Source: Eubacteriales bacterium
GTDB lineage: Bacteria; Bacillota; Clostridia; Oscillospirales; CAG-382
Direction: 5' to 3'
NCBI GenBank assembly: GCA_045536935.1
Contig: JAZSOO010000005.1
Span: 2,804 to 66,803 of the forward strand
Length of the DNA stretch: 64,000 nt
Under the pieces are notes generated by a model. The model made no database searches, was not told where the DNA came from, and was given only the letters and a program-made list of their open reading frames with translations. Position 1 is the stretch's first letter, and each line of letters starts with the position of its first letter. The position numbers and the translations under genes are program-made. Shown in pieces: positions 53,197 through 63,165 of the stretch.

Positions 53197-54081
53197 TTAA
53201 TACATCAAGGATTCGGTATTATCCTCTGAATATTCTATTTCTTCGGAAATTATACTTGCAAGCACGGCAATCTCCTGCAATGACTCTGCCTTTTGTGAAC
53301 TCATAAGCGAAGCCAAGAGTCTTTCGCAGAACAGGCAAAATGCTAACCGAGAGCAAAAATCTTCTTCATCAAAGGCTTCCGTACAATGGCGGTAGATAAA
53401 ATAAGCCAAGGCTCTTTCCAAATACTCGTCTTTACCGTTAGGACGTGTTTGCGATGAATAGGTCATAAATAATTCTTTATGAGTATTATCAAGGTATTCC
53501 AAAGAATCGATTATTTTCAGCCATTCGCTGTCATCGCCGACGTTAATTCCGTATTCACGGTAGATTCGCTCGAGCTTTGTTTTGTAATCAATATTTTCAT
53601 CACGCAATGTTTTATATAGCTTGGTGCGTTCGGAAATGCCGTCCAAAGCAATTACATCTTCATCGGCAGTAAGCTCTCCGATCTCTTCAAAGACATCGTA
53701 ATTCGGAGAAGAAAGAATTATCCTTGCAGCTTCACGGCAGGACATACCAAGTCCAACCTCGGCAATTCTTGTATAGTTATAAAACCTTGGGTGTTCTCGG
53801 CAGATATCGCAAAGGTAATCCTCGCCTACGTTTAGAATGATCTTACACAATCCGTTTTCATTAAGGTGCGGACATCTGTCGTGTGCACAAAGCTTGAAAT
53901 GCGGTGTTTCCTGCAAAGAAATGCTGTTTATGATATTTGGAGCATAGCTGTTCTTTAGATTTTTATATTTTTCGAAGGTCGATTCATCAATATCAATTTC
54001 CCAACCGATACAACAGCTATGTTCGCATTTATCCGCAATGCATATAAAGTTTTTATAATATTCGGGTGCGTAAAGTTTCAT
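53197..54081 (-). CDS. FliB-family (flagellin lysine-N-methylase-like) cysteine-cluster protein
   Basis: Cys-rich N-terminus FICIADKCEHSCCIGWEIDID...CPHLNENGLCKI...CDICREHPRF, typical of the FliB/YkgJ-like family. No flagellar genes are nearby. Confidence 0.55.
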   Translation of the reverse strand: MKLYAPEYYKNFICIADKCEHSCCIGWEIDIDESTFEKYKNLKNSYAPNIINSISLQETPHFKLCAHDRCPHLNENGLCKIILNVGEDYLCDICREHPRFYNYTRIAEVGLGMSCREAARIILSSPNYDVFEEIGELTADEDVIALDGISERTKLYKTLRDENIDYKTKLERIYREYGINVGDDSEWLKIIDSLEYLDNTHKELFMTYSSQTRPNGKDEYLERALAYFIYRHCTEAFDEEDFCSRLAFCLFCERLLASLMSSQKAESLQEIAVLASIISEEIEYSEDNTESLMY

Positions 54082-54084
54082 TTT

Positions 54085-54942
54085 TTACTTCTTATCAAAA
54101 AGTGCTCTGCGTTCGGTTGAGTGGCGCATCATCTTTCTCATTCCGTCAATATCCTCGGATTTGAGCATACTTCTCAATTCGTTGAATTTTGCCGTGAACA
54201 GATCCATTTGTTCAAGCAAAATATCCTTGTTGGCTACGAAAAGCTCGCTCCACATCAAATCGTTGATGCGTGCGATTCTTGTAAGGTCTCGGAACGAGTC
54301 GCCCGTGAACTTTTCCATATCTTCTTTATCGTTACACGTCATAAGAGTTACGGCGATACAGTGAGTGAGCTGAGAAAGGAAGCCTATCATTTCGTCATGC
54401 TCCTCGGGCGAGAGTTTGGTCACGTTTGAAAAACCGAGCAGTCTGCCAAGCTCCATACAGGTCTGTATCGCTTCGGGAGTGTTTTTATCGGTGGGAGTTA
54501 CAATATAGTTTGCACCGATGAACATTTTGTCCGTGCTGTTTTCAACACCCGAGACCTCACGGCCTGCCATAGGGTGTGCCGCAATAAATTCCACGTCGGG
54601 ACGAAGCATATTTTGGATATTATACACGATACTTCCCTTAACACCGGTTACGTCGGTAATGAGCGCTCCGCTTTTGAAAAGACTTTGATTCTGTTCTATC
54701 CATTCAACGAACACGTGCGGATACAGTGCAAAGATAACAAGGTCTGCACTGCCGATAATCTCTTCATCGATCTCGGTTGAGCCCTCGTCGATCATGCCCT
54801 CTCTTATGGCATAGTCTATCGAGCTTTGGTCGAGAGTAATTGCGCTGATATGAAAACCGAAACGTTTTAACACCTTTGCATAGCTTCCGCCCAAAAGACC
54901 GAGCCCGACAATTAATATTTTCTTACTTACGTCAACTATCAT
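54085..54942 (-). CDS. tyrA: prephenate dehydrogenase
   Basis: Rossmann motif ILIVGLGLLGGS and a PDH core (HPMAG). It is the last gene of the aro operon. Confidence 0.88.
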   Translation of the reverse strand: MIVDVSKKILIVGLGLLGGSYAKVLKRFGFHISAITLDQSSIDYAIREGMIDEGSTEIDEEIIGSADLVIFALYPHVFVEWIEQNQSLFKSGALITDVTGVKGSIVYNIQNMLRPDVEFIAAHPMAGREVSGVENSTDKMFIGANYIVTPTDKNTPEAIQTCMELGRLLGFSNVTKLSPEEHDEMIGFLSQLTHCIAVTLMTCNDKEDMEKFTGDSFRDLTRIARINDLMWSELFVANKDILLEQMDLFTAKFNELRSMLKSEDIDGMRKMMRHSTERRALFDKK

Positions 54943-56141
54943 AATAATTCCACTTCTGCTTTAAGCTGTTTTATATCCTCAAAAAACGACGGATAGCTTT
55001 TTCTTACGGCTTCTATACCCTCTATCGTACCGCCGATCTTTGAAAGGACAACCGACAATGACATTACGATACGGTGGTCGTTGTGTCCGTTGAGTGCCAA
55101 CCCTTTATATTGAAGGTTTTGCTTTGGTACGGTTATTGTATTATCTCCGAAAATCAATCCGCCACCGAGCTTTGAAAGCTCTTCGTGCATTGCAAGACCT
55201 CTGTCGCTTTCCTTTGCTTTTAATCGGTCTGTGCCTATGAAGGTAGCACCGTTTTTCATTGCCGAAAGAGCAAACAATATCGGCCCGAGGTCGGGACAAT
55301 CGGAGATATCAAGCGTTGGTGTGCCGTTTGAGATTTGGTCGAAATAATCCGAATACACTCTGTCACCCTGCAGGCTGTCTGATTTCAGGTTTCCTATCCG
55401 AATATCCGAGCCGAGATGATTGAATGCATCGAGGAATGCGGCATTGGAATAATCTCCCTCGATCTTGCCCGAAAAGGAGTTCATCTTTGAAGGTTTTATA
55501 TCAATTCTGTATTCGTCGGCAAACGATACTTCCGCACCGAAAGATCTGAGGGCAGATATTGTCAAATCAATATACGATCTGCTCTCAAAGGGCGGAAGAA
55601 TCTCTATTGATGAATCTTTATTCAAATATACAAGAGCAAAGATAAGTCCCGTAATAAACTGACTGCTTATATCTCCCCGTACCTTATATGAACCGCTGTC
55701 AAGATTTCCGCAAAGTGTTACGGAAGTTTTGTCTTTGGTAAAAGCAAAGCCTTTTTCTTGGCAAAGAGCTTCATATACGTCAAGCGGTCGTTCGAGAAGC
55801 CTTTCACTGCCCTTAAGGACAACGGTTTTGCCCAAGCACAAGGCAAGAGGAATGAAAAAGCGAAGAGTGCTTCCGCTTTCTCTGCATTCCAATATCGGAG
55901 CATCAGACTGCATAAATCCTTGCGGATCTACTGTCACCTTGTCCTCATCGACGGTTATATTTGCCCCCAATGCTTTAAGGCAATCGATACTTGCAAGAAT
56001 ATCCTCGCTGTAATCAACGCCCGAAAGAACACATTTATTCCCCGACAAAGCCGCACCGATAAGGTATCTGTGCGCCATACTTTTGGAAGGCGGTGCAGAT
56101 ATTGTTCCTTTCAATATGCTTGGCTTGAATATTGCTGTCAT
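54939..56141 (-). CDS. aroA: 3-phosphoshikimate 1-carboxyvinyltransferase (EPSP synthase)
   Basis: 400 aa with EPSPS motifs (PPSKSMAHR, LKAKESDR, NGHNDHRIVMS). Confidence 0.93.
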   Translation of the reverse strand: MTAIFKPSILKGTISAPPSKSMAHRYLIGAALSGNKCVLSGVDYSEDILASIDCLKALGANITVDEDKVTVDPQGFMQSDAPILECRESGSTLRFFIPLALCLGKTVVLKGSERLLERPLDVYEALCQEKGFAFTKDKTSVTLCGNLDSGSYKVRGDISSQFITGLIFALVYLNKDSSIEILPPFESRSYIDLTISALRSFGAEVSFADEYRIDIKPSKMNSFSGKIEGDYSNAAFLDAFNHLGSDIRIGNLKSDSLQGDRVYSDYFDQISNGTPTLDISDCPDLGPILFALSAMKNGATFIGTDRLKAKESDRGLAMHEELSKLGGGLIFGDNTITVPKQNLQYKGLALNGHNDHRIVMSLSVVLSKIGGTIEGIEAVRKSYPSFFEDIKQLKAEVELL

Positions 56142-56142
56142 C

Positions 56143-56571
56143 TTATTTTTCCTCGATAAGAAAATCTATTGCTTCAAGGTATCCGTCGGTGCCGTGTCCT
56201 GTTATAGTCTTAACGCAAGCAAGGCGAACGTAGCTTATCTGACGGAAATCCTCACGTTCCTCTACTTTCGAGATATGAACCTCAACAGTCGGGATATTGA
56301 CAGATTTTACGGCATCAAGAATTGCGATGCTCGTATGGGTATAGGCACCCGGATTTATAACGATACCGTCGGCAGAACCGTATGCACCTTGAATCTTATC
56401 CACAAGGTCGCCTTCGTGGTTGGATTGGAACAGCTCAACGTCTATATTCTTCTGCTTGCAATGGTTTTCTATTTTTGCCACAAGGTCGGCATAGGTTTCT
56501 TTTCCGTAATGGTCGGGTTCACGAATGCCGAGCATATTCAGGTTTGGTCCGTTTATGACAAGTATCTTCAC
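56143..56571 (-). CDS. aroQ: type II 3-dehydroquinate dehydratase
   Basis: MKILVINGPNLNMLGIREP...FQSNHEGDLVD...NPGAYTHTS. Confidence 0.95.
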   Translation of the reverse strand: MKILVINGPNLNMLGIREPDHYGKETYADLVAKIENHCKQKNIDVELFQSNHEGDLVDKIQGAYGSADGIVINPGAYTHTSIAILDAVKSVNIPTVEVHISKVEEREDFRQISYVRLACVKTITGHGTDGYLEAIDFLIEEK

Positions 56572-57815
56572 GCTATCTGCTCCGTTCTTTTTGCTAAAAT
56601 GTATTCCGCTTCCGCATCGGGCGTTTCCATATCGGGAACGGTTACGTCGGCGGTCGATCTATAGATATTAATTCTTTCGTTATATAGCTTTATGAGCTTA
56701 TCTTCGGTATTTGAAAGCGGTCTGTCAATTGTTGCACAAAGCCTTGACGGTCGTGCATCGATGAAGAACAGCTTGCCGTTGCGTTTTAGGCTTCTGACGT
56801 TTTCTTCTCTTAAAACCGCACCGCCGCCCGTGGATATGACCTTGCAGTTTTTTGAGGATACGTCACGGATGACCTCGGTTTCTAAATTTCGGAAGTAGGT
56901 TTCGCCTTTTGTTTCAATAAGCTCTTTTATACTGCATCCGCAACGCTTTTCTATTTCGGTATCGGTGTCGATAAACTCAAATCCGTCAAGATTTAAAAGC
57001 TTGCCCACCGTGCTTTTTCCGCTTCCGGGCATTCCGGTAAGTACTATATTCTCCTTTGATGCAAGAACCGATGCAAACACCTTGTCGGCAACGGTCTTTT
57101 CGATTTTGGTATCGAGAAATCTCTCTACCGCAACCACCGCCTGCATTACGAGCATATAAAGTCCGCCTTCTGCCTTGATCCCTCTTGCCTTTGCATCTAA
57201 AACAAGATTTGTGCAGAGGGGGTTATAAACCACGTCGATTACGCCCTCGAGGAGAGAAAACGAAGAAATATCTATAGGCTTCGATTCGCAATCGGGATAC
57301 ATTCCCGACGGTGTGGTATTTATGATAACGTTGGCATCGGAATGCAACGTTACGGCTTCTTCATAGGTTATATGTTCGTCGGTCTTTCGTCTGCTGACCG
57401 TTAATATCTGCGAAGCACCCATATCGGTTGCAACGACAAAAGCCGTTTTGCTTGTTCCGCCCGTACCGAGAATGAGAACCTTTTTATCTTTAAGGTCGAT
57501 ACCCACCCTCTCGATGAGAGCCTTCATTCCGTAATAATCGGTATTATAACCGTAAAGACTGCCGTTACGGTTTACTACGGTGTTAACTGCTCCGATACGC
57601 TTTGCGATGTCACTTACCGAATTTAGATACGGTATGACCGTCTGCTTATAAGGAATGGTCACGTTTATTGCTTCAAATTCCTTTTTCTCAAAGAACGGCT
57701 GTATTTCTTCCTCTGCAAGCTCGATAAGCTCGTATTTATAATCGGCAAGCTGAGAATGAATTTCCTTTGAAAAGCTATGAGTGAGCTTCTTGCCGATACA
57801 TCCGTATTTTTTCAT
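56568..57815 (-). CDS. bifunctional shikimate dehydrogenase / shikimate kinase fusion
   Basis: The N-terminal ~265 aa are AroE-like (SFSKEIH, LGTGGTSK). The C-terminal ~150 aa are AroK-like with P-loop GMPGSGKSTVGK. Confidence 0.88.
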   Translation of the reverse strand: MKKYGCIGKKLTHSFSKEIHSQLADYKYELIELAEEEIQPFFEKKEFEAINVTIPYKQTVIPYLNSVSDIAKRIGAVNTVVNRNGSLYGYNTDYYGMKALIERVGIDLKDKKVLILGTGGTSKTAFVVATDMGASQILTVSRRKTDEHITYEEAVTLHSDANVIINTTPSGMYPDCESKPIDISSFSLLEGVIDVVYNPLCTNLVLDAKARGIKAEGGLYMLVMQAVVAVERFLDTKIEKTVADKVFASVLASKENIVLTGMPGSGKSTVGKLLNLDGFEFIDTDTEIEKRCGCSIKELIETKGETYFRNLETEVIRDVSSKNCKVISTGGGAVLREENVRSLKRNGKLFFIDARPSRLCATIDRPLSNTEDKLIKLYNERINIYRSTADVTVPDMETPDAEAEYILAKRTEQIA

Positions 57816-57816
57816 T

Positions 57817-58905
57817 TTATTTCATCCAATCCGTGCCGAATCTCATTGAAAGCATATCGCACATTACAATTGCAGAGGCAGCATCCTGCACCACTCTTGC
57901 TCTGTGTACGATTGCGGGGTCGTGTCTTCCCTTTCCTTCTATGGTAGTTTCGGTCATTGTTTTGAAATCTATCGTAGATTGCGGTTTGAATATCGTAGGT
58001 GTCGGTTTGATTGCGGTACGGAAGATTATGGGCATACCGTTGGTGATGCCTCCGTTGATACCGCCGTTATTGTTGGTTGTTGTGATGACCTTACCGTTAT
58101 TCATACGCATAGGGTCGTTTGCTATACTGCCACGCATATCGGCAATCGCAAAGCCTGCGCCGAATTCGATTCCCTTCACCGCAGGGATAGAAAACATCAT
58201 ATGCGAAAGCATACCTTCTACAGAATCGAACCAAGGCTCGCCAACGCCTTCGGGTACACCGATGATTGCGGTTTCGAGGATACCGCCCACGCTGTCGCCG
58301 TTGGAGGAAGCTTTGACGATAGCTTCTTTCATTTTTTCTCCGATATTATCGTCAAGCACCGCAAAGGTTTTTGCGTTTACCGTGTTTATATCTGCCGACA
58401 AATCATTAAATTCCCTATCCGAAACACCTGCACATTTTTTAACGTGTGTTCCGATATAGATTCCCTTTTGCTCCAACGCATATTTACATATTGCACCTGC
58501 GGCGACAAGTGCGGCAGTTATTCTTCCGCTGAAATGTCCTCCTCCACGTGAATCCTGATAGCCGTGATATTTACATTCTGCGGTATAGTCTGCATGGGAC
58601 GGACGGGCAACGGTTTTCATTTCCGAGTAATCGCCGCTTTTGACGTTTTCGTTGGGGATAAGGATAGTTATGGGTGTTCCTGTGGTTTTATTGTTTATCA
58701 CACCGCTGACGATCTTATATTCGTCTTTTTCTTGTCTTGGCGTAGATATATCTCCGTTGGGACGGCGAAGTGTGAGAAGATGGGCGATATAGTCGTGGTT
58801 GATTTCTATTCCGGGCGCAATTCCGTCGATGACCGCACCGATATATTCTCCGTGGCTTTCTCCGAACAAAGTTACTGCTACGCTGTTTCCGAACGTATTT
58901 TTCAT
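57817..58905 (-). CDS. aroC: chorismate synthase
   Basis: GESHG, RPSHAD and GRHDP motifs. Confidence 0.95.
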   Translation of the reverse strand: MKNTFGNSVAVTLFGESHGEYIGAVIDGIAPGIEINHDYIAHLLTLRRPNGDISTPRQEKDEYKIVSGVINNKTTGTPITILIPNENVKSGDYSEMKTVARPSHADYTAECKYHGYQDSRGGGHFSGRITAALVAAGAICKYALEQKGIYIGTHVKKCAGVSDREFNDLSADINTVNAKTFAVLDDNIGEKMKEAIVKASSNGDSVGGILETAIIGVPEGVGEPWFDSVEGMLSHMMFSIPAVKGIEFGAGFAIADMRGSIANDPMRMNNGKVITTTNNNGGINGGITNGMPIIFRTAIKPTPTIFKPQSTIDFKTMTETTIEGKGRHDPAIVHRARVVQDAASAIVMCDMLSMRFGTDWMK

Positions 58906-59924
58906 TCTGATAACCCTTCCAAAACTTTTTTTGCCGTTTCGATCACTTCAAGGCATCCTGTTGTTTTCATTTCAAAACTACCTATTTCGTTTACCGTTGT
59001 TACGGTCACGCTATCGCCGTTTGCCTTCTTATCATGGAATGCGGCTTTTGTGATCTTATCCCAATCGTAATTTATTTTACGATATAAATTGCACTTTTTC
59101 AAGACCTTGATCACTCTCGGTCGAATTGCTTCTCCGCACATAGGAAGCATTCCGAGCGCAACGCATTCTCCGTGATAGAGCTCGCTCATTCCCTCACTGC
59201 TCTCTATACCGTGTCCTACGGTATGGCCGAAGTTGAGTATCTTGCGAAGTCCAGATTCCTTTTCATCCTGCTCGACCACATCTTTTTTGATTTTGAGCGA
59301 ACGAACGATTATTTCATCTATATTGTCCTCAATATCCTTATTTTCGAAAATGCCAAAAAGCTCTTTATCGGAGGTAAGCGCCATTTTGACAGCTTCGGCA
59401 AGGCCGTTTGAGAGCTGTCTTTCGGGAAGAGTTTTCAAAAGATCGGGGTCGATAAGAACCTTTTTGGGTTGATAGAACGCACCCACGATATTTTTAACTC
59501 CGCCGAAATTAATTGCGGTCTTTCCGCCTATCGAGGAATCTATTTGAGAAAGAAGCGTTGTGGGTATATTGTAAAAATCTATACCACGCATATATGCAGA
59601 TGCCGCAAATCCCGAAATATCTCCGACAACACCGCCGCCGATTGCAACAACACAATCCTTGCGTGAAAAGCCGTTATCAAGCATAGTTTGAAGCAGTTTT
59701 CCGAACGTTTCCATACTTTTTGATGCTTCGCCCTGCTCTATTTTGCAGATAACGGCATTTTTACTTTGTTCTGCAACCGTCACGGCATATTCCTCGGGAA
59801 CGCCCGAATCGGTTACTATAAGTACGTTTCTATTTAAATTTAATTGTGTTTTTGCATTTGAAAGGATACCTCTTTCTACGATTATGTCGTAGCTATCCTC
59901 GCCCAAATTCATACGAATCGTCAT
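58902..59924 (-). CDS. aroB: 3-dehydroquinate synthase
   Basis: GGGVVGD.GFAAS and PTTLLSQIDSSIGGKT motifs. Confidence 0.93.
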   Translation of the reverse strand: MTIRMNLGEDSYDIIVERGILSNAKTQLNLNRNVLIVTDSGVPEEYAVTVAEQSKNAVICKIEQGEASKSMETFGKLLQTMLDNGFSRKDCVVAIGGGVVGDISGFAASAYMRGIDFYNIPTTLLSQIDSSIGGKTAINFGGVKNIVGAFYQPKKVLIDPDLLKTLPERQLSNGLAEAVKMALTSDKELFGIFENKDIEDNIDEIIVRSLKIKKDVVEQDEKESGLRKILNFGHTVGHGIESSEGMSELYHGECVALGMLPMCGEAIRPRVIKVLKKCNLYRKINYDWDKITKAAFHDKKANGDSVTVTTVNEIGSFEMKTTGCLEVIETAKKVLEGLSE

Positions 59925-59932
59925 TTTTTCAC

Positions 59933-61021
59933 CTATATTTCGGTATGAGGTGCGAAAGCACCTGCTACTTTAACTATATCACAGACCTTATTTAAATCTT
60001 CAAGCATTTTTTGTCCGTTGTCGCTGTTAACCGTGCCGTCGATCTCAATATAGAAATAGTACTGCCAAGAATGTTTTTTCATCGGTCTGCTGCGTAATGC
60101 TGTCATATTGTATCCGTATTGACCGATTATGCTGACCGCATTCGCAAGCGAACCTGCTTCGTGCTTGACCGTCAACATCAAAACAGTGTTTGAAAGTGTT
60201 GAGTCTTTTGCACTCACTTTTGAAAGAACCGCAAATCGTGTTGTATTTTCTCCGCTTTTGTTGATATTTGCTTCAAGCACCTTCAAACCGAAGATCTCTG
60301 CAGTCTCCATACTTGCAATTGCACCGAGAGATCTATCGTTTGCCTCTGCAACAGTTTTTGCGGCAAGAGCAGTATTGTTGGACTCTTCAGCTTCAAACCC
60401 ACGCATTTCAATATAATCGTGACACTGGCTTAGTGCCTGCGGATGACTTGTTACCTTTTTAATATCTTCTACCGTCGCACCTTGAACGCCAAGAAGATTT
60501 TGGTGGATCTCCAGCTCGTATATTCCGTTAATGAAAAGCTCGCCCGAGAAGATAAGGTCCATCGTCTGCCCTACTTCGCCTGCATAGCTGTTTTCAATGG
60601 GGAGCACCGCTACGTCGCTTTCACCCTTGACGACAGAATCGTAAGCCGCCTTGAAATCACCGTAGGAAACACGGTTTCCGTTTGGGAATATCCGTCCTGC
60701 GGCAATATGTGCAAAAGCTCCCTCCACACCGCTGTAAGCGACCTTCAAACCGTTTTGCAAACGGTGTTGATATGCACGGGAAATGGACATTATATTTTTG
60801 AGAAAATCGATATAATATCCCTTTAATATTTCATCTTCGACGTATGCGGAATTCCGCTCTATGACTTCTTTTTCACGTTTTTCGTCGAGAATCGGAAGTC
60901 CGTATTCCTTTTTATGCTCATAGACCGTTTCGGCGGCTTTCATACGTTCAACAAACAGCTTCGCCATTTGCTCGTCCACCGAATTTATGATCTTTCTTGC
61001 TTCTTCCAATTTATTTGACAT
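59933..61021 (-). CDS. pheA: bifunctional chorismate mutase / prephenate dehydratase (P-protein)
   Basis: An N-terminal CM helix region (ARKIINSVDEQMAKLFVERM), then a PDT domain (VAYSGVEGAFAHIAA) and an ACT domain. The ATG at 61021 lies 6 nt after AGGTG. Confidence 0.88.
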   Translation of the reverse strand: MSNKLEEARKIINSVDEQMAKLFVERMKAAETVYEHKKEYGLPILDEKREKEVIERNSAYVEDEILKGYYIDFLKNIMSISRAYQHRLQNGLKVAYSGVEGAFAHIAAGRIFPNGNRVSYGDFKAAYDSVVKGESDVAVLPIENSYAGEVGQTMDLIFSGELFINGIYELEIHQNLLGVQGATVEDIKKVTSHPQALSQCHDYIEMRGFEAEESNNTALAAKTVAEANDRSLGAIASMETAEIFGLKVLEANINKSGENTTRFAVLSKVSAKDSTLSNTVLMLTVKHEAGSLANAVSIIGQYGYNMTALRSRPMKKHSWQYYFYIEIDGTVNSDNGQKMLEDLNKVCDIVKVAGAFAPHTEI

Positions 61022-61032
61022 TCTTTTCACCT

Positions 61033-62061
61033 TTAAAGCTTTTCTGCGATATCGAAAATAAGTCTTTCTGTCTTTTCCCAGCCAAGGCAGGGGTCGGTGA
61101 TGGATTTACCAAAGATATGTTCTTCTGCCTTGCAAGCGCCGTCTTCAAGATAGCTTTCGATCATCAAGCCTTTGACAAGACGTTTGATATCCGCATTTTG
61201 ATTACGGCTGTGAACGATATCCTTTGCGATACGGACCTGTTCGAGATATTTCTTGCCCGAATTGTTGTGGTTTGTATCAACGATAACCGAAGGATTTGTA
61301 AGGTTGGATCTTTCGTAAAGCTCTTCAACTCTGAGCAAGTCTTCGTAATGATAGTTAGATATGCTTCTGCCTGCATAGTCGAGGTAACCACGCAAAATTG
61401 CGTGTGCATAGGGGTTGCCGTCGCTGGTGACTTCCCAACCACGGTAGATGAAGGTATGGCTTGACTGTGCGGCTACGATGGAGTTCATCATAACGCTTAG
61501 GTCACCGCCGGTGGGGTTCTTCATACCAACGGGTGCGCCTATACCGCTTGCGGTAAGTCTATGCTGTTGGTTTTCGACCGAACGTGCGCCGATGGCAACG
61601 TAGGAAAGCAGATCGGAAAGGTAACGGTAATTTTCGGGATACAGCATTTCGTCGGCACAGGAAAAATCATAATCACGAAGTGCCGCCAAATGAAGCTCAC
61701 GAATGGCTACAATACCTTTATACATATCGGGTTTTGCTTCAGGGTCGGGTTGATGAAGCATACCCTTATATCCCTGTCCCGTGGTTCTCGGCTTGTTAGT
61801 ATAGATACGGGGGATAATGATTATCTTATCGGATACCTGCTCTTCGATTCTGCGAAGGCGTGATATATATTCAAGCACGGGTTCGCTATGGTCTGCAGAG
61901 CAGGGTCCTACCACGAGTATAAATTTATCTAAACTGCCGTCAAACACCGCACGTATACTTGCGTCACGTTCTGCCTTGACCTGCTCCATACGCTCGGTTA
62001 GCGGATATTCTTTTTTGACTTCTTTGGGAATGGGGAGTTTTCTGTGGAAATTCATTTGCAT
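61033..62061 (-). CDS. 3-deoxy-7-phosphoheptulonate (DAHP) synthase, class I
   Basis: VVGPCS...PRIYTNKPRTTGQGYKGM motifs. The ATG at 62061 lies 9 nt after AAGAGG, and the longer listed N-terminus runs into the leader terminator. Confidence 0.88.
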   Translation of the reverse strand: MQMNFHRKLPIPKEVKKEYPLTERMEQVKAERDASIRAVFDGSLDKFILVVGPCSADHSEPVLEYISRLRRIEEQVSDKIIIIPRIYTNKPRTTGQGYKGMLHQPDPEAKPDMYKGIVAIRELHLAALRDYDFSCADEMLYPENYRYLSDLLSYVAIGARSVENQQHRLTASGIGAPVGMKNPTGGDLSVMMNSIVAAQSSHTFIYRGWEVTSDGNPYAHAILRGYLDYAGRSISNYHYEDLLRVEELYERSNLTNPSVIVDTNHNNSGKKYLEQVRIAKDIVHSRNQNADIKRLVKGLMIESYLEDGACKAEEHIFGKSITDPCLGWEKTERLIFDIAEKL

Positions 62062-62095
62062 GATCTTGTACCTCTTTTTATGCAGGATCGCTTTG

Positions 62096-62146
62096 AAAAA
62101 TAAAAAATCCGCACCAATATGCCTTAAAAGCATAACGAATGCGGAC
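62096..62146 (-). terminator. attenuator terminator in the aro operon leader
   Basis: On the minus strand, a long imperfect hairpin TCCGCATTCGTTATGC-ttttaag-GCATATTGGTGCGGA followed by TTTTTTATTTTT, 35 nt before the DAHP synthase RBS. Confidence 0.7.
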
Positions 62147-62172
62147 TGACCGTTTTATTTACCTCAAAGCGT

Positions 62173-62244
62173 TTATGCTTTGGTAATCACATAAGACAGG
62201 CAGCCCTTTTTAAAATAATAAAAGTAAAACTTGTTGTTCATCAT
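62173..62244 (-). CDS. candidate aro leader peptide MMNNKFYFYYFKKGCLSYVITKA (23 aa)
   Basis: ATG at 62244, 8 nt after AAAGGAGG. Codons 6-11 are TTT TAC TTT TAT TAT TTT. The stop codon lies inside the segment that can pair with the terminator 5' arm. Confidence 0.6.
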   Translation of the reverse strand: MMNNKFYFYYFKKGCLSYVITKA

Positions 62245-62277
62245 TTTAACTGCCTCCTTTGTGATTTATTGTTGAGC

Positions 62278-62306
62278 ATTATATCACGTTAAAATAGTAA
62301 AGTCAA
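62278..62306 (-). promoter_or_regulatory. promoter of the aro operon
   Basis: On the minus strand, TTGACT (62306-62301), a 17-nt spacer, then TATAAT (62283-62278). Confidence 0.65.
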
Positions 62307-62434
62307 GAGATTTTTTTAACAAATATCTTTTTTATTGAATTGACGAGGGGGATTGTATGAAAAATACGACAAGGTTGAATGGCTTAACTGATGGGTTCTC
62401 GATATAAGTGTAAAGAATTGGTACGGGATAGACA

Positions 62435-62472
62435 AAGAAGGAGTTTCAAATGACGAAACTCCTTCTTTTTTA
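62435..62472. terminator. strong hairpin terminator (T-run on the plus strand; also directly downstream of the minus-strand hypothetical gene)
   Basis: AAGAAGGAGTTTC-aaatgac-GAAACTCCTTCTT followed by TTTTTAT. Confidence 0.7.
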
Positions 62473-62473
62473 T

Positions 62474-63121
62474 TCAGTTTGTAATGATAGAATAATTACA
62501 ATTCTCACATTGTGAGTTCGATTGAGCATTCAACAAACCACAAACAGGGCAGGCAACCTTTTCCTTTTTGTCTTCCGGAATCTTCACATAAATATCGGTG
62601 CCATATAAGTGAAAGACACGGTCGCCCTGCTTGAAAATTTCATCATAATTATTATCGTTTGACGGCGGTGCAGAACTTATTGTTCTTTTAAGATTCTTGC
62701 CATCGGCAGTCTTAATGGAAATCTCCATCGTAATTATAGAATAAAAACCTCTGTATGATGCAGTTTTGGAATTCACCGTCGATTGTCTTTTGCCTGTCGC
62801 TCTGCTATTGTATCCGGTGGTTACGGTTACCTTTTCAATAGTACCAAAAAAGGTTCTATCGATAAGTTTCATCGGCACACCCGTGATAAAGCATATAATA
62901 AATACTAGTGCGATACATATAAATTCTTTTATACGATACAAAGAATCTTCAGGATCAAAAACTTGATCGCCGAATAATATCAAACCAGCAAAGAGAATAG
63001 CCAATAAAATAATCCAAGAGCATAACCTAACCAATAAATATTTTCTTGCATATTTCTTTAAATCATCAGGAATATAATTATTCATTTCGATACCACATTT
63101 CTTATTTGTAAGGTTTGTCAT
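62474..63121 (-). CDS. hypothetical membrane protein with a C-terminal zinc-ribbon (CPVCG...CENC)
   Basis: ORF 62474..63145. The first listed ATG lies inside the -10 box of its own promoter, so the start is more likely 63121 or 63085. It has two TM segments and a CxxC...CxxC tail. Confidence 0.5.
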   Translation of the reverse strand: MTNLTNKKCGIEMNNYIPDDLKKYARKYLLVRLCSWIILLAILFAGLILFGDQVFDPEDSLYRIKEFICIALVFIICFITGVPMKLIDRTFFGTIEKVTVTTGYNSRATGKRQSTVNSKTASYRGFYSIITMEISIKTADGKNLKRTISSAPPSNDNNYDEIFKQGDRVFHLYGTDIYVKIPEDKKEKVACPVCGLLNAQSNSQCENCNYSIITN

Positions 63122-63136
63122 CTTTCGTACAAAAAC

Positions 63137-63165
63137 ATTATACAACTGTTTCCATTACTTTTCAA
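63137..63165 (-). promoter_or_regulatory. consensus promoter (extended -10) of the hypothetical gene
   Basis: On the minus strand, TTGAAA (63165-63160), a 17-nt spacer, then TG-TATAAT (63144-63137). Confidence 0.6.

Follow-up and report, generated by a model that had tools for sequence, protein, structure and literature searches.

A putative phenylalanine/tyrosine leader-peptide attenuator with conserved alternative pairings ahead of the aromatic amino acid operon of uncultured Clostridia

Does the short open reading frame (ORF) rich in phenylalanine and tyrosine codons that precedes an eight-gene operon for chorismate, phenylalanine, and tyrosine synthesis let a translating ribosome decide whether the operon is transcribed? 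For gut and rumen Clostridia of the lineages concerned, T-box control is the usual assumption. The original prediction, made from the DNA of this one locus, held that the aro-pheA-tyrA genes are controlled by Phe/Tyr leader-peptide attenuation, and the comparative evidence presented here strongly supports this view, with a different antiterminator from the one that had been drawn. Judging from these comparisons, we consider it probable (roughly 0.85) that the leader is a ribosome-mediated attenuator that senses charged tRNA-Phe and tRNA-Tyr and controls the chorismate/Phe/Tyr operon. The source organism is an uncultured MAG, and "the window" is the whole stretch of 64,000 nucleotides that was analysed; all features described below lie on its minus strand and are given in its coordinates.

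The operon, aroG-pheA-aroB-aroC-aroE/K-aroQ-aroA-tyrA (54085..62061), was delimited by Pfam and ORF coordinates. Pfam identified aroG (DAHP synthase, 61033-62061), pheA (CM-PDT, 59933-61030), aroB (DHQ synthase, 58902-59924), aroC (chorismate synthase, 57817-58905), an aroE/aroK fusion (shikimate DH/kinase, 56568-57815), aroQ (DHQase II, 56143-56571), aroA (EPSP synthase, 54939-56141), and tyrA (prephenate DH, 54085-54942), that is, all eight genes of the predicted operon, including its pheA and tyrA branches. As the junctions are short or overlapping, these genes probably form a single transcript. Transcription would start at a near-consensus sigma-70-type promoter (62306..62278), in which a -35 box TTGACT (62306-62301) and a -10 box TATAAT (62283-62278) are separated by a 17-nt spacer carrying the TG of an extended -10 element, with 11 of the 12 consensus positions matching. 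A Shine-Dalgarno (SD) sequence, AAAGGAGG (62260-62253), follows and is separated by an 8-nt spacer from the ATG at 62244 of the leader ORF MMNNKFYFYYFKKGCLSYVITKA (62173..62244), which was read from the sequence, appears in the ORF list, and comprises 23 codons plus TAA (23 aa). Codons 6-11 (62229-62212) form the regulatory run TTT TAC TTT TAT TAT TTT (F Y F Y Y F). The promoter, the strong ribosome-binding site with its mini-ORF, and the six consecutive Phe/Tyr codons are thus all present as originally described. In an AT-rich genome such as this one (1.49 Mb), runs of at least five aromatic codons are no rarity, and the six frames contain 47 of them; the combination of an aromatic run with the conserved RNA blocks downstream of it occurs at only two genomic loci, the aro leader and a paralogue before a transporter gene.

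The leader ends in an intrinsic terminator (62096..62147), located by the minimum free energy (MFE) fold and by homologue pairing, and the predicted long hairpin and U-tract before the DAHP synthase ribosome-binding site are therefore borne out. Its hairpin (62147-62106) consists of an outer stem, AGUCCGCA / UGCGGAUU, internal loops, and an inner stem, UAUGCUU / AGGCAUA, and is followed by the U-tract TTTTTTATTTTT (also written UUUUUUAUUUUU; 62107-62096), whose end lies 35 nt upstream of the aroG ATG at 62061. The whole leader folds with -62.1 kcal/mol (RNAfold, z = -5.97 against 200 shuffles), and the terminator has a probability of 1.0 in the free RNA, both in the window and as the median across leaders. 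A simple terminator scanner did not list this terminator, the stem of which contains internal loops; the call is based on RNAfold and on the outer stem, in which 93.8% of cells are paired across 41 homologous leaders and three pairs are changed on both sides.

To place these elements in a wider context, we compiled 73 distinct leaders from related uncultured Clostridia, 40-41 of which entered the structural comparisons. Of the 48 closest orthologous loci, about 38 carry an F/Y mini-ORF ahead of aroG. When RNAalifold was run on a MAFFT alignment, the outer terminator stem was all that it recovered, as structure had not guided the alignment of the variable parts, and structures were compared by per-sequence duplex energies and constrained folds. 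Four regions emerged. Region 1, AAUCACAAAGGAGGCAG (62250..62266), contains the leader SD and is the proposed anti-antiterminator; its partner is region 2 together with the codons that follow it. Region 2, GGGCUGCCUGU (62196..62206), encodes G-C-L-S (G-C-P-S in most relatives) and can pair with either region 1 or region 3. Region 3, ACGGUCAGUCC (62143..62153), is the 3' arm of the conserved antiterminator, and its last five nucleotides (AGUCC) double as the base of the terminator 5' arm, while region 4 is the terminator 3' arm that runs into the U-tract. Pairings 2:3 and 3:4 thus overlap by only about 5 nt.

Both alternative helices of region 2 are conserved. The 1:2 duplex reaches -22.9 kcal/mol in the window (z -5.2; none of 500 shuffles as good) and a median of -19.9 kcal/mol in 40 homologues (z -3.5), with 73-79% of its cells paired and nine pairs changed on both sides, a number reached by 0 of 500 shuffles. 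The second leaders of tandem pairs are without this helix. The 2:3 duplex, with -14.2 kcal/mol in the window and a median of -16.3 kcal/mol in the homologues (z -3.5), is present in 40 of 40; its consensus pairs GGGCUGCCyGU, which covers the G-C-P/L-S codons, with ACGGnCAGUCC. Paired cells amount to 93.4% in this helix, compared with about 40% in slid controls, which also lie well below the values for 3:4 and 1:2. True covariation for 2:3 is thin (three pairs with double changes, mostly in single sequences) because regions 2 and 3 are almost invariant. In region 2 this near-invariance includes the codon third positions, and throughout the block after the run nucleotides are kept at third positions too while the amino acids vary (G/D, P/L/S). 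One leader (L018) has a single position altered jointly in regions 2, 3, and 4 (GAGCUG / CAGUUC / GCGAAC).

The effect of a ribosome on these pairings was modelled by making all RNA 5' of its leading edge unavailable; a plain masked-ribosome constraint was rejected as physically unrealistic, since helices closed around the ribosome. With the 5' part masked in this way, the 2:3 helix forms in the nascent RNA of all 41 leaders and in the MFE structure of 36 of the 41, and its median probability rises from 0 to 0.92. In their free state, five or six leaders adopt a different fold. The 2:3 state of the 5'-masked window RNA lies at -33.7 kcal/mol, close to the -31.8 kcal/mol of full termination; with the two nearly isoenergetic, the switch would have to rely on co-transcriptional kinetics.

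These pairings suggest the following sequence of events, for which ribosome footprints and sterics are assumed; the spacing is compatible with it, as region 2 begins 7 nt past the run and the stop codon lies between regions 2 and 3. When phenylalanine and tyrosine are plentiful, the ribosome would pass the run and region 2 and halt at the UAA, where it would cover or sterically block region 2 while regions 3 and 4 are made, so that the 3:4 terminator could form and transcription would end at about 62096. After its release, or if no ribosome had loaded, region 1 would pair with region 2 and sequester the SD, again leaving 3:4 free to form. If tRNA-Phe or tRNA-Tyr were poorly charged, the ribosome would stall early in the run, between regions 1 and 2, and region 2 would remain free to pair with region 3 as it emerges; this would remove the base of the terminator beside the U-tract, and RNA polymerase would continue into aroG. 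Shortage of Phe or Tyr is thus the most likely signal that turns the operon on. With the SD of the leader itself acting as anti-antiterminator, a transcript would be expected to undergo a single decisive round of translation. Such a single round, combined with a Phe:Tyr codon ratio tuned gene by gene, is better supported than a dual-input switch in which the 2:3 helix, with its conserved internal mismatch, also binds a protein or small molecule in addition to responding to tRNA charging, an extension that we consider distinctly unlikely. The design would be compact: the SD doubles as anti-antiterminator, a hairpin loop holds the stop codon, and the two states compete for no more than 5 nt at the base of the terminator.

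The antiterminator of the original prediction was a different one. There, the segment around the stop codon, AAGCATAAACG/AAGCAUAAACG (62180-62170), was paired with the inner part of the terminator 5' arm, CGTTATGCTT/CGUUAUGCUU (62137-62128; the whole structure spanning 62128..62180), and a ribosome at the stop codon was thought to mask it. The two segments are indeed complementary in the window (-10.0 kcal/mol, matched by 7 of 500 shuffles) and, more weakly, in the paralogue (-8.1 kcal/mol). However, it is not conserved: the median duplex energy in 40 homologues is -4.5 kcal/mol with z about 0, only 61.9% of cells are paired, and the two central G-C pairs of the helix are unpaired in 21 of 41 leaders. 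It is also energetically inferior, as the window fold in which it is enforced reaches -19.3 kcal/mol, which leaves it 14 kcal/mol behind the one containing 2:3. The stop codon has a small hairpin of its own, CAAAGC-AUAAAC-GCUUUG (62165..62182), and occupies its loop. Nearly all homologues form an equivalent hairpin from other stem sequences (CCAAAG/CUUUGG, CCGAAAAA/UUUUUCGG, CUGAGG/CUUCAG, and others). With the pairing not kept and the stop codon in a conserved hairpin, we rejected the stop-segment antiterminator as the conserved switch, and an attenuator operating exactly as first drawn is very unlikely.

A different kind of explanation would make the ORF incidental and let a protein (TRAP-like, acting on U-A/U-Y triplet repeats) or a small molecule decide between terminator and antiterminator by binding the leader RNA, for instance at the nearly invariant 2:3 helix. 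The run is indeed a triplet repeat, and simple base pairing would not demand the degree of invariance seen in regions 2 and 3. Nevertheless, 70 of the 73 leaders have an SD and ATG in the reading frame of the run, compared with 0 and 1 for the other two frames. The run, with a length of 3-8 codons (median 6), is constrained as codons: only T occurs at the first codon position, T or A at the second, and T or C, never A or G, at the third (TTT 182, TTC 20, TAT 161, TAC 76 in the 73 leaders), and F and Y swap freely. All 73 leaders contain at least two Phe codons and at least one Tyr codon, and a Trp codon is absent from every one of them. The in-frame stop has a preferred distance from the run, with 12 intervening codons in 36 of the 73. 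The invariance of regions 2 and 3 has a simpler cause in the double duty of region 2, whose obligatory partners are the SD region and region 3 alike, and an unsystematic look beside the leader loci revealed no candidate binding protein. Moreover, in a close relative (L004) whose aroG is 92% identical, a T-box (110 bits), which likewise reads tRNA charging, takes the place of the element at the same position ahead of aroG, and its specifier aligns as UUC, probably for Phe. Taken together, a decision by a protein or small molecule is highly improbable. Scarcely credible is the further reading that the mini-ORF encodes a functional small peptide (e.g. a Cys-containing one with a KGCPSFV motif) and that the hairpin is a constitutive or leaky terminator: K-G-C-P-S-F-V is kept at the peptide level in many leaders, but synonymous positions of this block are kept as well, amino-acid changes that preserve pairing are tolerated (G to D, P to L or S), the tail is truncated directly past the motif in several leaders, the stop precedes the motif in one further genome (G477), and the element always lies ahead of Phe/Tyr genes with a terminator always behind it.

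The genes behind the leaders agree with attenuation by Phe and Tyr codons, as all of them are related to these two amino acids. They comprise aroG (n = 47), pheA (n = 18), CM-aroB (n = 2), tyrA (n = 1), a PLP aminotransferase (n = 2), and an SSF transporter, which follows the second leader copy in this genome and a leader in two relatives. The shared regulation makes the SSF-family symporter with its Tyr-rich leader a candidate tyrosine/phenylalanine importer and the aminotransferase, which is of the PRK06836 type, a candidate aromatic aminotransferase. The SSF transporter has leaders with the run YYYYYY, and if the codon ratio is tuned gene by gene, this transporter may be a tyrosine importer.

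The mechanism itself is textbook. The Escherichia coli pheL-pheA leader (RF01859; PMC3082878), which follows the trpL paradigm, likewise combines a short ORF and a Phe codon run, in which the ribosome senses charged tRNA, with alternative hairpins and an intrinsic terminator before a CM-PDT gene. In contrast to this gamma-proteobacterial system, the run of the clostridial leader mixes Phe and Tyr codons and controls the common pathway together with both branches, and region 1 corresponds to the SD region rather than to the regulatory codons. Covariance-model or sequence similarity between the two is absent, as Phe_leader RF01859 has no match in the window even at E up to 10. The aroR leader peptide of Corynebacterium glutamicum also has mixed Phe/Tyr codons (Phe-Tyr-Phe) before a DAHP synthase operon, in this case upstream of aroF; according to a summary of the work of Neshat et al. 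(2014), it was experimentally tested and responds to Phe limitation, and Tyr supply was reportedly without effect (PMC11802643). This actinobacterial leader, described there with only three regulatory codons, is compared here by description rather than by sequence.

The regulation proposed here had been thought unusual for Firmicutes, which is only partly right, as leader-peptide attenuators responding to His (PMC2965389) and to Leu/Ile (PMC5794164) have been documented or predicted in this phylum, and the leu/phe leader RNA of Lactococcus lactis is another Firmicute peptide-leader attenuator (RF01743; PMC2864571). Among the Rfam leader families, a permissive scan of the window brought up RF01743 alone, with a match spanning the whole leader. 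Its 19.3 bits (E = 3.3) are at chance level and far below the gathering score of 70, and we therefore rejected membership of the present leader in this family. A Phe uORF upstream of aroF has also been proposed in Acholeplasma (PMC8632094). This candidate, uORFC-13-1, has a promoter, a ribosome-binding site, a start codon, and a Phe-coding U-run directly before an intrinsic terminator, and its 24 representatives occur exclusively upstream of aroF in Acholeplasma and unidentified environmental sequences (PMC8632094). The present leader shares the described features (aroF position, ribosome-binding site, start codon, Phe U-run, and terminator), which are generic ones, and the two can be set side by side by description; the U-run is said to contain "at least one" Phe codon, and Tyr codons are not mentioned (PMC8632094). 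A scan with Rfam 15 gave no match of uORFC-13-1 to the window.

A further counterpart is the Phe-specifier T-box (RF00230), which has the same regulatory output, senses tRNA-Phe charging, acts by transcription antitermination, and occupies the same aroG position in L004, but unlike the present leader reads uncharged tRNA directly and without an ORF. T-boxes are present elsewhere in the source genome, and the region 61500-63000 of the window contains no T-box match at E up to 10. Between close relatives, the one system appears to have taken the place of the other at this gene.

None of the Rfam families matched the present leader, with permissive thresholds yielding only chance-level matches, and the literature searched, which lay largely outside subscription journals, contained no account of a clostridial Phe/Tyr leader. 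The RNA family thus appears to be undescribed in these sources. Should this reading be confirmed, a broad range of uncultured gut and rumen Clostridia would regularly control aromatic amino acid synthesis by ribosome-sensed attenuation. Within the family, the covariance model R1 has matches in 29 of 151 genomes; several further families also yield matches, and a model of this kind would improve annotation, as the mini-ORFs would no longer be called hypothetical proteins. One match (G477) lies outside the class, in a genome that is probably not an Acholeplasma because its GC content is 46%.

The aro leader appears, from its sequence, to be a real, well-conserved attenuator of the classical leader-peptide type. 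On the minus strand, a TTGACT-17-TATAAT promoter (62306-62278; 11 of 12 consensus positions, with a TG before the -10 element) is followed by the ribosome-binding site AAAGGAGG (62260-62253) and, after an 8-nt spacer, by a 23-codon ORF, MMNNKFYFYYFKKGCLSYVITKA (ATG at 62244, TAA at 62175-62173), whose codons 6-11 are TTT TAC TTT TAT TAT TTT. The loop of a small hairpin (CAAAGC-AUAAAC-GCUUUG, 62182-62165) contains the stop codon, and the stem sequence of this hairpin varies freely among relatives. A terminator follows, consisting of a hairpin (62147-62106) and the tract UUUUUUAUUUUU (62107-62096), and the DAHP synthase ATG is found 35 nt beyond this tract, at 62061. The predicted fold of the 214-nt leader has an energy of -62.1 kcal/mol, with z = -5.97 relative to 200 dinucleotide shuffles. 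Pfam assigns the downstream genes to aroG, pheA (CM-PDT-ACT), aroB, aroC, an aroE/aroK fusion, aroQ, aroA, and tyrA. The promoter, ribosome-binding site, ORF, terminator, and downstream genes were all accurately described in the original prediction. The source is a 1.49 Mb MAG (96% complete) of an uncultured Clostridia member, and close aroG relatives, labelled Eubacteriales, Oscillospiraceae, or Acutalibacteraceae, come from ruminant and other guts.

Close orthologous aro leaders mostly share the mini-ORF, a check that the original prediction called for. The comparison covered the 80 aroG loci of GTDB species genomes that are closest to this one. A Phe/Tyr mini-ORF is located ~100-130 nt upstream of aroG in most of the first 48 (aroG 80-94% identical); it is not present at the more distant loci of this set. 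The typical peptide consists of Met, 3-8 further residues (usually 3-6), a run of 3-8 Phe/Tyr codons (median 6), two variable residues, G/D-C-P/S/L-S, and a variable tail. Together, the aroG-locus leaders and the matches of a covariance model of the family (R1) comprise 73 distinct leaders, all with at least two Phe and at least one Tyr and none (0/73) with Trp. The gene that follows is aroG (n = 47), pheA (n = 18), a chorismate mutase-aroB fusion (n = 2), tyrA (n = 1), a PRK06836-type PLP aminotransferase (n = 2), an SSF transporter (n = 1, with two same-genus copies on top), or a spurious ORF between tandem leaders (n = 2). The aminotransferase (530 bits) occurs at loci L124 and L126, which belong to two further families of this order, and its shared regulation makes it a candidate aromatic aminotransferase. 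R1 matches are patchily distributed, with 29 of 151 genomes in the same family (6/15 genera), 11 of 151 in the same order (6/30 families), 4 of 150 in the same class, and one genome of the phylum outside the class; a match is missing from many genomes of the same genus. Two complete leaders, both with a terminator of their own, follow one another in tandem upstream of aroG at six loci (L001, 710-961; L002, 2568-2854; L003, 2624-2888; L005, 2613-2888; L010, 263-535; and L131, 1487-1740) and probably at L037.

Codon usage and frame point to translation of the run. In 70 of 73 leaders, a Shine-Dalgarno (SD) sequence and ATG within 48 nt upstream share the reading frame of the run, compared to 0 and 1 for the other two frames. 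Within the run (TTT 182, TTC 20, TAT 161, and TAC 76 codons across the 73 leaders), base 1 is always T, base 2 is T (Phe) or A (Tyr), and base 3 is T or C. The following GGGCUGCCCGU block is near-invariant, third positions included, while its residues vary (G/D, P/L/S) and base pairing is kept; thus, constraint acts on codons in the run and on RNA in the block. This synonymous-site conservation, together with truncated tails, makes it unlikely that the mini-ORF product is a functional micropeptide. Moreover, in the variant from outside the class (L141, G477:C75:3240-3361, minus strand), the ORF ends before the motif: an 11-codon leader upstream of pheA, MYIINRFYYYS, has its stop codon immediately before the conserved block. 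The G477 genome is 1.2 Mb in size, with 46% GC at the leader locus.

A switch read by a protein or ligand instead of a ribosome is likewise improbable, given the frame-specific SD-ATG, the constraint on the run as codons, and the replacement of the leader by a T-box in a close relative. In this relative (L004, aroG 92% identical), a bona fide T-box (110 bits, L004 2651-2902) occupies the leader's position. This exchange of one sensing system for a non-orthologous one among close relatives independently supports tRNA charging as the signal read by the leader. In the Rfam alignment, UUC and the conserved purine after it fall at the specifier position, from which we infer a Phe specifier. The genome containing the aro leader has T-boxes at other genes, two of them above cut-off (contigs C27 and C2).

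Leader-peptide attenuation as originally proposed is thus retained as the predicted function, whereas the helix proposed as antiterminator is replaced by another, conserved one. The original pairing, of the stop-codon segment AAGCAUAAACG with CGUUAUGCUU, reaches -10.0 kcal/mol in the window, but equivalent segments of 40 homologues have a median of only -4.5 kcal/mol (z ~0), no more than 61.9% of the alignment cells are paired, and 21 of 41 sequences leave its two central G-C pairs open. Enforced in the window fold, it gives -19.3 kcal/mol, compared to -33.7 kcal/mol with the alternative between region 2, the G-C-P/L-S codon block, and region 3, the ACGGnCAGUCC block. This 2:3 helix (GGGCUGCCUGU, 62206-62196, with ACGGUCAGUCC, 62153-62143, minus strand) has a duplex energy of -14.2 kcal/mol in the window (median -16.3, z -3.5, found in 40/40 homologues), and 93.4% of its cells are paired. 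Two further helices are conserved as well. Region 1, the SD region, pairs with region 2 in an anti-antiterminator helix (AAUCACAAAGGAGGCAG, 62266-62250, with CUGCCUGUCUUAUGUGAUU, codons 15-21, minus strand; -22.9 kcal/mol and z -5.2 in the window, homologue median -19.9 and z -3.5), in which 73-79% of cells are paired and nine pairs are changed on both sides (0/500 shuffles as high). The terminator helix 3:4 (AGUCCGCA with UGCGGAUU, minus strand, adjoining the U-tract) is paired in 93.8% of cells; slid controls yield ~40%. One position is altered jointly in regions 2, 3, and 4 of L018 (GAGCUG / CAGUUC / GCGAAC), and the SD-side pairing GGCAG:CUGCC has become ACGAG:CUCGU in the pheA-type clade. 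In second tandem copies, helix 2:3 is retained, but 1:2, which sequesters the SD, is missing (E12 about -6 kcal/mol, z ~0).

Folding models support a leader RNA that would switch between two states. In free RNA, 1:2 and 3:4 dominate (median probability 1.0 each, 0 for 2:3). With all RNA 5' of region 2 masked, all leaders (41/41) form 2:3 in their nascent RNA, and the MFE structure includes it in 36/41 (median probability 0.92). Of the terminator stem, helix 2:3 occupies no more than the 5 nt at the base; overlaps of such small size suffice in other attenuators, e.g. the Bacillus subtilis trp leader. Because the two states of the masked window RNA are only 2 kcal/mol apart, the outcome would have to depend on the order of synthesis. 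In the proposed mechanism, an ample supply of charged tRNA-Phe and tRNA-Tyr would let the ribosome pass the run and region 2, which begins 7 nt after the last run codon, and halt at the UAA between regions 2 and 3. During synthesis of regions 3 and 4, region 2 would then be covered or sterically kept off region 3, and the terminator would form; ribosome footprint sizes and sterics are assumed here. With no ribosome, or after its release, 1:2 would form, hiding the SD and again allowing 3:4. A ribosome stalled early in the run would prevent 1:2 from closing and leave region 2 free, so that 2:3 could form once region 3 is made, the terminator would lose the pairs adjoining the U-tract, and transcription would enter aroG.

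Published analogues include E. coli pheL (PMC3082878) and, as summarised in PMC11802643, the experimentally tested Phe-Tyr-Phe aroR leader of Corynebacterium glutamicum aroF (Neshat 2014). Firmicute leader peptides have been published for His (PMC2965389) and Leu/Ile (PMC5794164). A further analogue, judged by its published description, is the candidate uORFC-13-1, which precedes aroF in Acholeplasma and in environmental DNA (PMC8632094). No Rfam 15 family matches the leader, the sole leader-type hit being leu-phe_leader (19.3 bits, gathering score 70), and the full-text literature searched, which leaves out most subscription journals, contained no account of a clostridial Phe/Tyr leader.

Runs of at least five aromatic codons are not rare across the six frames of the genome, but their combination with the conserved downstream RNA blocks occurs at only two loci, the aro leader and a paralogue on contig C6. 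This paralogue (78% identical, encoding MKNKFYYYYYYFKKGCPSYVMSKA) has its own promoter-like sequence and terminator and precedes a sodium:solute symporter family gene (PF00474) that does not reach the PutP and PanF model cut-offs; leader and gene together are at L091 1500-3220 (= G000:C6:3185-4906). Since this arrangement of leader and transporter is kept in two same-genus genomes (L135 and L136, transporters 92% and 79% identical) and these leaders are conspicuously Tyr-rich (YYYYYY, YYYYY), the uncharacterised symporter is a candidate tyrosine/phenylalanine importer. The same contig contains a weak T-box-like match (25.7 bits, G000:C6:2340-2550, minus strand; L091 ~656-866) upstream of a gene whose N-terminus resembles threonyl-tRNA synthetase.

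Around the operon, a 294-aa ORF directly 3' of tyrA (53197-54081, minus strand) has no Pfam match. At the other end, the next gene upstream (62474-63145, minus strand) has a weak YoqO-like match. Between its end and the aro promoter is a 14-bp hairpin with T-runs on both strands (62434-62468), which probably insulates this promoter as a bidirectional terminator. Elsewhere in the genome, three short, similar frames on contig C5 (45278, plus strand; 21367 and 21427, minus strand), reading FFFFYCHG[LV]GWF... or YFFYFHGVGWF..., lack the downstream RNA blocks of the leader and possibly represent a small repeated element in several copies.
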